Origin: an uncultured Gammaproteobacteria bacterium
GTDB taxonomy: Bacteria; Patescibacteriota; Microgenomatia; Levybacterales; GWA1-39-11
DNA: 63,113 nucleotides
NCBI GenBank assembly: GCA_964394645.1
Contig: CAYMYC010000005.1
Coordinates: 1-63,113, forward strand
Direction of reading: 5' to 3'
Below, piece after piece: positions 60,124-63,113 of the stretch. The translations under genes and the position numbers were made by a program. The first letter of the stretch is position 1. Each line of letters opens with the position of its first letter. The notes beneath the pieces are model-generated. The model made no database searches. It was given only the letters and a program-made list of their open reading frames with translations, and was not told where the DNA came from.

Positions 60124-60834
60124 ATGAACACAAAACTTAAGAAAAAAATACTTATTATAGGAATTCTTGCATTAGTGATTCTTATTCCAACACTAATCTT
60201 TCTTATTCAAAAACTAACCACACCTCAACCTCCCCAAAGAATCTCACAAGCTCCCAACGCATGCCCAATAGATGGTGGAAAATGCTCATGGAGCACTGTA
60301 TCAGGTGCAACTTCATATGACTATAAAATTATAGATCTTTCAACAAATACTCAATTACTTGCAGGCAACACAACGTCAACCTTTATTACATTTCAACCGG
60401 AAGATGGAAAAAACTACAGATGTGAAGTTATAGCAAAAAATACATGCGGATCCAGTGGTGTAGGCGTTGGTACGGGATCTTGCACTATTCTACCTCCAAC
60501 TGTCACTCCTACACCTACCGTTCCTACACCTACACCAACACCTACTCCTACACCTTCGCCCACACCAACAAAAATACCTACACCTACACCAACACCTACT
60601 CCTACACCTTCGCCCACACCAACAAAAATACCTACACCTACACCAACACGACCTCCTGTTGTGGTCAATCCACCGGTAAATAACCCGCCTCCAATTGTAA
60701 ATAATCCGGTTATTCCAACTACTCCACCTATTCAACCTACTATCCCGCCAAGTGGATCCATAGGTGCAACCGTAGGAATTGTAGGTGGAATTATAATTAC
60801 TGTTATAGGTGGAATCATTATCTTTCTCCTCTAA
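60124..60834 (+). CDS. exported FN3-like + Pro/Thr repeat protein with C-terminal IPPSG + TM tail
   Basis: WSTVSGATSYDY..Y.CEV.A.N.CG; PT repeats; hydrophobic C-terminus. Confidence 0.7.
   Translation: MNTKLKKKILIIGILALVILIPTLIFLIQKLTTPQPPQRISQAPNACPIDGGKCSWSTVSGATSYDYKIIDLSTNTQLLAGNTTSTFITFQPEDGKNYRCEVIAKNTCGSSGVGVGTGSCTILPPTVTPTPTVPTPTPTPTPTPSPTPTKIPTPTPTPTPTPSPTPTKIPTPTPTRPPVVVNPPVNNPPPIVNNPVIPTTPPIQPTIPPSGSIGATVGIVGGIIITVIGGIIIFLL
60523..60649 (+). repeat. perfect 54-bp coding tandem repeat (about 2.3 copies)
   Basis: The unit encodes PTPTPTPTPTPSPTPTKI. Confidence 0.9.
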
Positions 60835-60955
60835 ATACGCGGTGTTGTCTTCATGCGTACTTTTTTGTTAAAATATCAGATCAAGTAATTATGTCGGGGA
60901 TTTTTATCTCAACGTAAACAAAACTTGCGATGGTCATCCCTTTAATAGGATGCGC

Positions 60956-62722
60956 CTAAAAACTCTTTACTTGTGGACTTTGTCCACGAAAATGAACTTT
61001 TACAATTAAATTTTTCTTGAAATCGTTAATACCGAGGGTCGTTAGTTCAGCGGTAGAACGCTTTCCTGTTCTAATTTTTTGGGCGCATGGCTCAGGGGTA
61101 GAGCACGTTCCTGATAAGAACGGGGTCCTTGGTTCGAATCCAAGTGCGCCCACCAACAACGAACTAATCGGCTTTTTTGAAGCCAACATGCGGGACGCGC
61201 GAAGCGCGTCCCAATGGTTTCTGCCTGAATTTCGCCCAGAATCCAAAGGGGAATTCGCCAAAAATGAATCCAAATCCGGCGCGCTTGCGCGCACCTGTTT
61301 TTCGCCGAGGAGGAGGTTCGAGCCAAAGATTTCTTTGGCACAGACCTTTTTCGCAAAAAGGTCTGAATCAGAAGCAATTTTGTCTATATTTTGTGCGACT
61401 TCTATCCAGTTTTGGAAAGGTTCGAGCCAATCATTTTGCTTGTGTGAAAGATTGTAGATTTCTTCTTCGAGTGACTTCTTTTCGGATAACAGTTTTCCTT
61501 TCTGTAAACGATAATCTTCGCGGTCAATATCTTGCTCCAAGTAGCCAGTAAGAAGTCGCTCTAACTTTTGCGACAAAGAAGAAATCTTTTCTTGCTTCTC
61601 TTTTACACAAGCAGTTAAAGACTGGGCGGATTTTCCGTGGTCTTGCAAAGCAAGACGATTGAGTTCCACCGCCCAGTCTTTGGGCAAAGAAACTTTTTTG
61701 ATTAGGGATGATAACTGGTTGTCTAATTCCTCTTGACGAATACAAGGTTCTTCACACTTTATGTTTTTATTTTTCTTGGTGCAGTGGTAATATACATACT
61801 CGTGGACATTTCCGTTCTGCTGTTTCTTAACCTTGTATTCGCCAGTTATCATCATTCCGCATGAGGCGCAGGAAATTAGGCCACAAAAAGGTTGAGGGTC
61901 ATTTATGGGCTTTCTGTCAGGTTTACCGCGAAGTTTCAACATTTCCTGCGCCTGATCAAAAAGTTTCTTTGAAATGATTGGCTCGTACTTTCCTTCGTGG
62001 AGTTCGCCACCATAGCGAAATAGTCCTGTATAAAACGGGTTGGAGAGAATTGAAGTTGCACGGGATTTATGGATTCTCTTTCCGGTTTTTGAAAATAGAT
62101 TGTGCTTCGCCAAAAAGTTTGAGACATCTTCCAGTCTATTGCCGCCTTTTACATAGAACTCAAATGCTTGCTTGATAACCTTGGCTTTCTTTCTGTCAAC
62201 AACCACAGTTTTTGTTCGTGAGTCGTTGATATATCCGACAGGAGCAAGCGTTGGATAATCTCCGTTACGAACTTTTTGGCGTAAACCTCTTTTGGTATTT
62301 TCGGAAAGAGAATCTACATAGTATTTGCTTTGACCGAAAGCCACATTCAACATAAATTTTCCTTGCGAGGTGCTATCGCACCAGAAAGTTGGAAATTTAA
62401 GGCTCACAAGTTTCCCTGTGTCGAGGAGGTAGATTACCTTTCCACCGTCAATACTATTTCTTGCGAGACGATCCGGATGCCAAGAGAGGATAGAATCTGC
62501 ATCGCCCTTTTCAATACACTTCATCATTTCGTTAAATATGGGACGACCTGGAATTTTGGCAGATTGTTTTTCTATAAACTCTTGGGCGATGTTCAGATTT
62601 TCTCTCTTGGCATAGTCTCGCAATTCTTGGAGCTGTGCCTCAATACTCAAAACCTGCTTGTCCTCGACATCAGTGGACTTGCGAGCATACAAAAAGAATT
62701 TTTGCGAAGATATATTATTCAT
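60956..62722 (-). CDS. large serine recombinase (resolvase + recombinase + zinc-ribbon domains); last 64 aa are a read-through of antisense tRNA and host DNA
   Basis: YARKST, DRLARN, APVGY, ILSNPFYTG, CASCG..YYHC; the tail GALGFEPRT is the antisense of a tRNA T-arm. Confidence 0.93.
   Translation of the reverse strand: MNNISSQKFFLYARKSTDVEDKQVLSIEAQLQELRDYAKRENLNIAQEFIEKQSAKIPGRPIFNEMMKCIEKGDADSILSWHPDRLARNSIDGGKVIYLLDTGKLVSLKFPTFWCDSTSQGKFMLNVAFGQSKYYVDSLSENTKRGLRQKVRNGDYPTLAPVGYINDSRTKTVVVDRKKAKVIKQAFEFYVKGGNRLEDVSNFLAKHNLFSKTGKRIHKSRATSILSNPFYTGLFRYGGELHEGKYEPIISKKLFDQAQEMLKLRGKPDRKPINDPQPFCGLISCASCGMMITGEYKVKKQQNGNVHEYVYYHCTKKNKNIKCEEPCIRQEELDNQLSSLIKKVSLPKDWAVELNRLALQDHGKSAQSLTACVKEKQEKISSLSQKLERLLTGYLEQDIDREDYRLQKGKLLSEKKSLEEEIYNLSHKQNDWLEPFQNWIEVAQNIDKIASDSDLFAKKVCAKEIFGSNLLLGEKQVRASAPDLDSFLANSPLDSGRNSGRNHWDALRASRMLASKKPISSLLVGALGFEPRTPFLSGTCSTPEPCAQKIRTGKRSTAELTTLGINDFKKNLIVKVHFRGQSPQVKSF
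61036..61067 (+). pseudogene. 5'-half tRNA relic (Val-like, identity uncertain)
   Basis: GGGTCGT-TA-GTTC-AGCGGTA-GAAC gives the acceptor 5' strand and a complete D-arm, then breaks off. Confidence 0.65.
61081..61155 (+). tRNA. tRNA-Ile(GAU)
   Basis: Full cloverleaf: GGGCGCA/TGCGCCC, D-arm GCTC/GAGC, anticodon arm CGTTC-CTGATAA-GAACG, T-arm CTTGG-TTCGAAT-CCAAG, encoded CCA. Confidence 0.95.
61151..61322 (+). repeat. inverted repeat copy A (172 bp)
   Basis: 100% identical to the reverse complement of 62891-63062 (compared base by base). Confidence 0.95.
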
Positions 62723-62740
62723 ATAAATTTTGAAAACTTA

Positions 62741-62824
62741 AATGGCCGCTCTTGGGGCGCCCACAATGATTGCTCAAAGTGGCCCAAAAACGGCCATTAA
62801 AATAAGCAATCACTATGTGGGCGC
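62741..62824 (-). ncRNA. structured 5' leader of the recombinase (long stem + pseudoknot)
   Basis: 9+8 bp stem (62757-62774 with 62805-62824); an 8-bp loop pairing (62791-62798 with 62741-62748). Confidence 0.5.
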
Positions 62825-62830
62825 GAATTT

Positions 62831-62858
62831 AGTATAGCAAAAATTCTTTTTATATCAA
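62831..62858 (-). promoter_or_regulatory. sigma70-type promoter of the recombinase
   Basis: TTGATA-16-TATACT. Confidence 0.6.
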
Positions 62859-62874
62859 AGCAAATACTATGAGT

Positions 62875-63062
62875 CAAAATTGCTTCTGATCTCGAACCTC
62901 CTCCTCGGCGAAAAACAGGTGCGCGCAAGCGCGCCGGATTTGGATTCATTTTTGGCGAATTCCCCTTTGGATTCTGGGCGAAATTCAGGCAGAAACCATT
63001 GGGACGCGCTTCGCGCGTCCCGCATGTTGGCTTCAAAAAAGCCGATTAGTTCGTTGTTGGTG
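62875..63062 (-). repeat. inverted repeat copy B (172 bp plus a 16-bp block, lacking 44 bp present in copy A)
   Basis: 62875-62890 matches 61367-61382; 61323-61366 is absent; followed by the alternative tail YLLYQVRTHFQNR* ending at 63104. Confidence 0.9.
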
Positions 63063-63113
63063 TATTTATTGTACCAAGTTAGAACCCATTTCCAAAATCG
63101 GTAATGTGGCACG

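Follow-up and report, generated by a model that had tools for sequence, protein, structure and literature searches.

A serine recombinase gene that reads antisense through tRNA-Ile: a probable attL junction of an integrative element with its attachment core inside the recombinase frame

Why should the reading frame of a recombinase gene run, on the antisense strand, straight through an intact tRNA gene? The question is raised by a 63,113-nt stretch of DNA (here called the window), which constitutes the entire contig C5 of G000, a Patescibacteria-type genome of 1.06 Mb in nine contigs. An open reading frame (ORF) at positions 60956..62722 on the minus strand encodes a large serine recombinase (LSR) of 588 aa as read in the present orientation. 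After the residues SSLLV, the frame remains open for a further 64 codons (aa 525-588; 60959..61150, minus), which lie antisense to the whole of a tRNA-Ile(GAT) gene (61081..61155, plus; ARAGORN, and Rfam tRNA at 67.4 bits), a 12-nt spacer (61069-61080), and a tRNA relic (61036..61068, plus), and the stop codon occupies 60956-60958. The first-pass annotation of the window had described this antisense course and had placed the junction at the terminal CACCA of the tRNA; the former proved correct to the base when compared with the ORF list, the ARAGORN prediction, and the coordinates, and the latter (61151-61155) is confirmed by the coordinates. The explanation favoured here, to which a probability of about 0.8 is assigned, is that the stretch represents the attL junction of an integrative, cargo-carrying LSR element with the core of its attachment site inside the recombinase frame, the tRNA forming the B half of attL.

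A database search with the recombinase returned thousands of homologues, many of them on contigs of 1.7-2.2 kb; the source names and titles seen with a specific lineage were all of Patescibacteria, except for a few titles of metagenome-assembled genomes (MAGs) that are labelled otherwise. In alignments of 27 proteins, 67 genome-derived ORFs, and 129 homologues, the check that the first-pass annotation had suggested, protein conservation reaches V524 and ends exactly there, at the tRNA junction. The codon of V524 (GTG) is the complement of 61151-61153 (CAC, i.e. C72-A73-C74 of the tRNA). Beyond this residue most homologues retain only G-[FIL]-E-P at a fixed distance, which is the translated antisense T-arm of any tRNA. 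The tails of 54 tRNA-facing relatives measure 8-76 codons (median 19.5; 60 or more in four), and identical tRNAs are accompanied by identical tails, e.g. tRNA-Phe in the loci L084 and L090. Because the tail is fixed in neither length nor sequence and is dictated by the adjoining tRNA, the 64 residues are, as judged from these alignments, an accidental read-through of unremarkable length and neither a conserved nor a selected domain; what is systematic is the read-through, since the frame is open as far as the core in every family member. A structure model of the 588-aa form (AlphaFold2, AF2, from 27 close homologues) is weak overall, with a mean predicted local distance difference test score (pLDDT) of 51; it predicts no structure over aa 523-588 (pLDDT 25-28) and is too weak to say more.

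The position of the core was deduced from three types of junction, namely tRNA/X, X'/P, and flank/P, where X and X' are the arms of an inverted repeat around the gene and P is a conserved arm adjoining X'. The tRNA/X and X'/P junctions are identical up to TGGTG, and the flank/P junctions of L047, L072, L076, L080, and L090 are identical to X'/P from GTG onward; the exceptions are L077, with TTGGTG in common, and L048, which matches only partly. As GTG (CAC, tRNA positions 72-74) is the sole sequence common to all three types, the crossover is placed within the V524 codon, at 61151..61153 beside the tRNA and at 63060..63062 in the intact attP-type junction X'/P. In L091, which lies beside a tRNA-Thr with U73, both junctions have GAG as the core, indicating that the core covaries with the discriminator base. 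The partner at the junction sets the C-terminal residues of the enzyme, which are either translated antisense tRNA or the P peptide. An attachment site within the recombinase gene, as the first-pass annotation had proposed, is thus supported by the end of similarity at V524, by the restriction of the common sequence to GTG/CAC, and by the empty site of a paralogous element described below. A conserved 64-aa tail, named beforehand as an outcome at odds with that proposal, was not found in the homologues, in which the tails vary as stated above, and the proposal stands.

X (61151..61322), which adjoins the tRNA and encodes aa 467-524, is the left copy of a 172-nt perfect inverted repeat. The right copy, X' (62891..63062), is 100% complementary, lies upstream of the recombinase promoter-like site, and is covered by unitigs from four studies. 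Repeat comparison revealed only these two copies in the genome, and they bracket the recombinase, the sole gene of this module. A 44-nt segment unique to the gene copy and absent from the upstream repeat copy (61323..61366, minus) encodes the family-invariant ..SDLFAKKVCAKEIFG and forms two hairpins; beyond it, the repeat has a 19-nt extension, in which 61367-61385 pairs with 62872-62890. The same 44-nt and 19-nt arrangement occurs in L003, a locus flipped relative to the window, and the gap is therefore old and not an artefact of this assembly.

X' adjoins a different sequence from that beside X, the P end (63063..63113, plus), a conserved pseudo-tRNA-like arm in which the contig ends. P is in frame with X' and encodes YLLYQVRTHFQNR followed by TAA (63063-63104). 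In the family, the frame at an attP-type junction enters the P arm and ends after 13-19 codons, with a tail of the form x-L-L-Y-Q-V-R-T-Y-F-Q-N-R/K and a stop. A conserved P of ~45 nt lies beside the tRNA-distal arm in 28 of the 36 loci with both arms and also in L003. The residues R-T of the tail are kept through synonymous changes of the Arg codon (AGA/CGA/CGC), which suggests that the P-tail peptide matters too. P resembles a tRNA 3' end, having AGAACC or CGAACC in comparison with CGAACC of the antisense T-loop, but its motif lies 4 bp further from the core, and the same offset is present in a 44%-identical paralogue and thus in two subfamilies. This common motif may be a recognition element. 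For the Listeria LI integrase, the zinc-ribbon motif of attB is displaced by 5 bp towards the centre relative to that of attP (PMC3783163), and by analogy the 4-bp offset would resemble such an LSR attB/attP register shift. A dyad making X and P symmetric about the core was looked for and none was found, and an exact search of JGI metagenome contigs for the window P end gave no matches.

The arrangement can be explained as follows. Where X is joined to the 3' end of a tRNA gene, the frame enters the antisense strand of the tRNA and stays open until the first chance stop, after 64 codons in the present case. X occurs twice, in inverted orientation around the gene, and its second copy is still joined to P. 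The free form of the element would be a small circle with two inverted attP-bearing X-P repeats, and flipping, by the recombinase or by homologous exchange, would toggle the gene between its natural tail and a read-through tail.

G000 contains a second element of this type (C1:159180-166335; L145, L005), located at tRNA-Pro(GGG), with a recombinase of 44% identity, 109-nt X arms, and 61-nt P arms. It lies in the middle of a 550-kb contig and reads tRNA/X-gene-X'/P-cargo-P'/flank: the tRNA-Pro ends at C1:159251, X extends over C1:159244-159351, the recombinase gene lies between X and X' (C1:160784-160892), and P (C1:160885-160945) and P' (C1:166225-166285) enclose 5.3 kb of cargo, after which the native flank is restored (attR). 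In G003 and G004, which belong to the same genus, tRNA-Pro is followed directly by the gene that is located ~7.0 kb further on in G000, and the insert thus corresponds to C1:159252-166285. This empty-site comparison proves that the paralogue integrated at the tRNA 3' end. Its attB, attL, attR, and internal attP have only TC(C/T)CGAC in common, in agreement with an attP x attB exchange that yields attL and attR around a short identical core (CGAC) with no target duplication. Pfam matches in the cargo include an ABC exporter, a NUDIX hydrolase, an MBL-fold protein, and a weak ART-like match; no replication gene is among the Pfam matches of this cargo, the cargo at other loci not having been surveyed in depth. 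When empty sites were sought at L072 among relatives of G040 and at L090 among relatives of G085, no clean comparison emerged, because the relatives are too divergent and the tRNA-Leu of G040 is inverted relative to theirs.

A family survey covered 80 species-representative genomes and 82 loci. A convergent tRNA faces the tail of the gene in 60 of these loci, and about nine are flipped or P-type; among 129 metagenomic database proteins, 87 have a tRNA-type tail and 20-25 are flipped or P-type. Both orientations occur among near-identical elements, approximately 78% of them tRNA-facing. Both arms are present in 36 loci, with an identity of 79-100% (95% or more in most) and a length of 100-185 nt (110-185 nt in most), and the tail-side arm overlaps the last 3-5 nt of the convergent tRNA. 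The target tRNAs include Arg, Leu, Gly, Val, Glu, Met, Lys, Thr, Ala, Phe, Tyr, and Ile. A single cluster at 90% identity contains the window protein, at least eight different tRNA tails, and one P-tailed member, the X-encoded peptide of which is identical to that of the tRNA-tailed members. The two-module layout (tRNA/X-U1-X'/P-U2-P'/flank) was found in L072, L076, L077, L080, L047, and L090 as well as at C1:159244-166285 of G000, and the cargo, located between the P arms, is unrelated between loci. Comparison of these elements shows recent movement between tRNAs and recent flipping, whichever enzyme brings the latter about. The perfect arms within an element, together with divergent arms between elements, imply gene conversion or homologous exchange as well. 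Integration is not alone in determining the tail, given that an intact inverted attP-type junction is retained and that the gene is found in either orientation.

By every feature examined, the enzyme is a large serine integrase. It carries an N-terminal resolvase-type catalytic domain with a serine nucleophile (Resolvase, PF00239, aa 10-155, E = 3.2e-22), followed by Recombinase (PF07508, aa 178-264) and Zn_ribbon_recom (PF13408, aa 278-338); the catalytic motifs YARKST (nucleophile S16) and DRLAR are invariant in the 27-protein alignment. The zinc ribbon is accompanied by a coiled-coil insertion, with long helices at aa 327-450 in the AF2 model (pLDDT 63-89). The features of small invertases such as Hin and Gin (~190 aa, a C-terminal helix-turn-helix (HTH), 26-bp sites, and an enhancer) are not those found here, where the conserved protein has 524 aa, LSR domains, and 172-nt arms. 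No recombination directionality factor gene is evident.

The element was also traced in its population by means of Logan unitigs (k = 31), which cover the stretch in four studies that sampled wastewater, sludge, and aquatic environments. Runs X1, X2, and X6 contain a unitig specific to the X'/P junction (63033-63088), and the pieces shown for X7 do not extend past 63062. In the data of three studies, the P end is joined at 63059 by another sequence, forming a flank/P (attR-type) junction, and this flank resembles the region downstream of the foreign-type tRNA-Ile. The contig itself stops 55 nt into the shared P sequence, as expected for a repeat node. For the window element, attL and attP are thus found in the window and attR is drawn from the unitig consensus.

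The tRNA-Ile that adjoins X is intact and foreign to the genus. It shares 93% identity with the tRNA-Ile found in other genera (G018, G020), and same-genus genomes have a different tRNA-Ile at the syntenic position; its CCA is encoded, whereas the native gene of the genus lacks CCA. It is the sole tRNA-Ile(GAT) of the assembly, yet imported. The relic (61036..61068) consists of the first 33 nt of the native tRNA-Ile(GAT) of the genus, being identical to the 5' part of the intact tRNA-Ile in G004 at the same synteny, and breaks off within the anticodon loop, after CCTG. Both X2 and X7 have a unitig that passes without a break from 61068 into the 3' half of the native tRNA-Ile, showing that a strain in which the native gene is intact lives alongside and that the boundary 61068/61069 is polymorphic. 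From these comparisons, the tRNA-Ile locus that harbours the recombinase element was imported and has replaced the native gene. Rfam at a permissive threshold detected nothing besides the tRNA in 60700-63113.

Several other readings of the locus were weighed. The perfect repeat, the end of the contig only 51 nt beyond it, and the known habit of metagenome assemblers to make palindromic ends could raise the suspicion that the inverted repeat and the odd gene end are artefacts of assembly or amplification, for instance a fold-back chimera. However, dozens of MAGs that were produced independently, in different projects and with different assemblers, have the same layout, the right copy differs by the 44-nt gap and continues into the family-conserved P end, the junction-specific unitigs come from runs of several studies, and the second element lies far inside a contig and has empty-site comparators, so that an artefact is extremely improbable. 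A resident phase-variation DNA invertase that is not mobile and touches the tRNA incidentally is very unlikely: although such a system would place gene and promoter inside a segment flanked by inverted repeats, like hin, and would explain why both orientations are seen, elements of >90% identity occur at no fewer than eight different tRNAs, empty sites exist, the cargo between the P arms varies, and the enzyme is of the large serine integrase type rather than a small invertase with a C-terminal HTH.

The remaining two readings concern the end of the protein. If the true protein ended near aa 466, X would be a non-coding att arm with terminators that is open by chance, and this would suit its weak codon periodicity (the ratio of changes at the third position to those at the first two is 1.29 in X in comparison with 2.61 in the catalytic part), its GC-rich hairpins with sequence covarying between elements, and the terminator-like sites on the strand read inward from the tRNA. 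There is very little chance of this, as none of 64 loci has a stop in the ORF frame within X (the 58 terminal conserved codons), whereas each of the other five frames has one in 26-54 of the 64, and the P-facing frame reaches a conserved peptide and a stop with the synonymous Arg changes described above. The view of the first-pass annotation, in which the 588-aa protein with its antisense-tRNA tail is a selected integrated-state isoform whose tail controls stability or directionality, is improbable. It gains from the 64 open codons, from the predominance of the tRNA-facing state in both the genomic loci and the metagenomic proteins, and from the fact that a state-specific C-terminus exists; against it stand the unconserved length and sequence of the tail, which the tRNA dictates, and the low pLDDT of the tail in the weak AF2 model. 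The part of that view which survives is that joining to the tRNA replaces the C-terminus; the part which does not is a specific integrated-state domain, since the tail varies with each tRNA.

Some observations also weigh against an attL junction with its core in the recombinase frame. The polymorphic left boundary, 61068/61069, lies in the anticodon loop of the native tRNA-Ile and not at a CCA end. The tRNA-Ile arrived with the insertion, so that two or more layers make up the history of the locus, and the favoured reading does not account for the outer junction. At X'/P there is an imperfect GTTC..GAAC dyad centred ~5 nt off the core, unlike a simple symmetric attP, and, in view of the weak periodicity noted above, X evolves mostly under nucleic-acid constraints. 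The attR and the cargo of the window element are off the contig and are known only from a 30-nt consensus. Because the 172-nt repeat exceeds k = 31, unitigs cannot link the flank to the unique segment and could not have revealed an inversion in the population; no recombination was observed directly.

Weak hints of regulation were also found around the gene. A recombinase promoter-like site (TTGATA-16-TATACT; 62831..62858, minus), a consensus match only, lies inside the invertible segment. P contains an inward-facing sigma-70-like promoter match (TTGAAA-16/17-TACAAT; 63095-63068, minus), again a consensus match, which is formed by the two best-conserved blocks of P. Terminator-like hairpins in X (61192-61222 and 61279-61302, plus) are on the strand read from the tRNA inward and not on the mRNA strand. 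X may thus terminate the tRNA transcript, yielding an RNA antisense to the recombinase 3' end, and the promoter-like site of P combined with these hairpins could perhaps give short RNAs antisense to the same region. A tentative and rather doubtful extension is a self-limiting bistable switch, in which the recombinase facing P is active with its 13-19-aa tail and the recombinase facing the tRNA has its tail swapped and is silenced. A flip, or integration, that turned the gene towards the tRNA would replace the P tail by antisense-tRNA read-through; the recombinase transcript would then collide with, and be complementary to, a tRNA read-through RNA terminating in X, and at the other junction the source of this antisense RNA would be the inward promoter-like site in the P arm. 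If true, silencing of the tRNA-facing state would account for about four in five copies being found in that state. A generic effect, in which any junk tail, or the loss of the P tail, inactivates the enzyme, is possible.

Other loci provide further observations. G000 encodes seven recombinases of the same clade, five of which read directly into an antisense tRNA. The paralogues L006 (C2:99679), L009 (C3:73745), and L011 (C1:316193), with 29-31% identity, run into antisense tRNA-Asn, tRNA-Pro-CGG, and tRNA-Glu-CTC, respectively, and no inverted repeat of 30 nt or longer was detected in these three. An att site in the ORF may be general for this recombinase clade. Two of the loci L029, L074, and L056 have a tRNA at both arms (Arg and Leu; Arg and Tyr) and one has P at both; such modules are the expected products of a spare attP acting on a second tRNA gene and, if so, the elements rearrange the chromosome. 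In G040 (L072), the element follows rplS, and beyond it comes tRNA-Leu on the opposite strand, an apparent inversion relative to the related loci L120-L128, where tRNA-Leu(GAG) comes after rplS and shares its strand. One of the latter (L121, 2080-2240) carries a displaced copy of the tRNA-Leu(GAG) 3' end ~150 nt downstream of the intact gene, another remnant of a past integration. An apparent tRNA-Lys relic at the flank/P junction of L072 was rejected as only the end of a 94-aa ORF.

Fragments of tRNA-Ile(GAT) were also seen at L094, L096, and L100-L104, where an intact gene is accompanied, at a distance of a few tens of nt, by 5' fragments ending in CCTG (CCT in L096) and by 3' fragments that start in the anticodon loop with AAGAA, i.e. 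a recurrent, loop-specific breakpoint. Contig C3 of G000 ends (102979-103358) in the 3' terminus of 16S rRNA, in synteny with what lies downstream of tRNA-Ile in G004. There is no tRNA-Cys in the G000 assembly, and this gene probably lies with the element cargo in the gap between C5 and C3. In the window, the ORFs 61017..61457 (plus) and 61042..61377 (minus), which cross the tRNA, were dismissed as by-products of the GC-rich repeat sequence.

Unidirectional genome engineering relies chiefly on large serine integrases, and a natural family that carries its site in its own coding sequence, uses nearly any tRNA 3' end, and keeps a spare inverted attP would, if the reading given here is correct, extend the known abilities of these enzymes. 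The tRNA-mimicking arm could be the means by which nearly any tRNA 3' end is accepted, which would make the enzyme a compact, naturally multi-target integrase. The genomes of Patescibacteria are tiny, and few mobile elements have been recognised in them; the present family looks like one of the main ways in which they gain genes and in which their tRNA loci turn over. For annotation, the C-termini of such recombinases beyond the core should not be taken as protein sequence in these genomes.

Systems with attP in a gene are known from tyrosine integrases, such as the integration-dependent immunity of mycobacteriophages, in which the repressor is truncated, and the split integrase of SSV1. They resemble the present family in having att in a coding sequence, so that integrated and free states encode different C-termini; here, in contrast, the recombinase itself is affected, and the inverted spare copy would regain the natural end without excision. 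Hin and Gin segments likewise have a recombinase gene (hin) inside an inverted segment between inverted repeats, but their enzymes are small serine invertases, their sites measure 26 bp, they have an enhancer that depends on Fis, and they are not mobile, whereas the present elements have an LSR and arms of 100-185 nt, are mobile, and are linked to tRNAs. The yeast 2-micron plasmid (FLP/FRT) has two long inverted repeats with recombination sites that separate two flipping unique segments, a dual layout that is seen here in the integrated form and would be matched by the free circle; it differs in being an autonomously replicating eukaryotic plasmid with a tyrosine recombinase, whereas the present element integrates and no replication gene was seen in the cargo covered. 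The tycheposons of Prochlorococcus also carry cargo, target tRNA genes, and leave partial tRNAs, and an LSR is present in 27 of 937 (bioRxiv 10.1101/2020.12.28.424599); they mostly use tyrosine recombinases, many have replication genes, and the passages considered here report neither an inverted spare attP nor an att site in the ORF. The family is also close to the large serine integrases (Listeria A118/LI Int, phiC31, Bxb1, and SPbeta SprA), which have the same Resolvase-Recombinase-zinc-ribbon/coiled-coil architecture, the same conservative attP x attB exchange with a short common core and no target duplication, and a motif nearer the centre in the host half-site (5 bp in LI, PMC3783163; 4 bp here). 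Literature searches found no description of this element family, and it differs from the described elements in having the core inside the ORF of the enzyme, in having as its target not a single locus but the discriminator/CCA end of nearly any tRNA, in retaining a second, inverted, intact attP-type junction, and in bracketing gene and cargo each by long inverted repeats.

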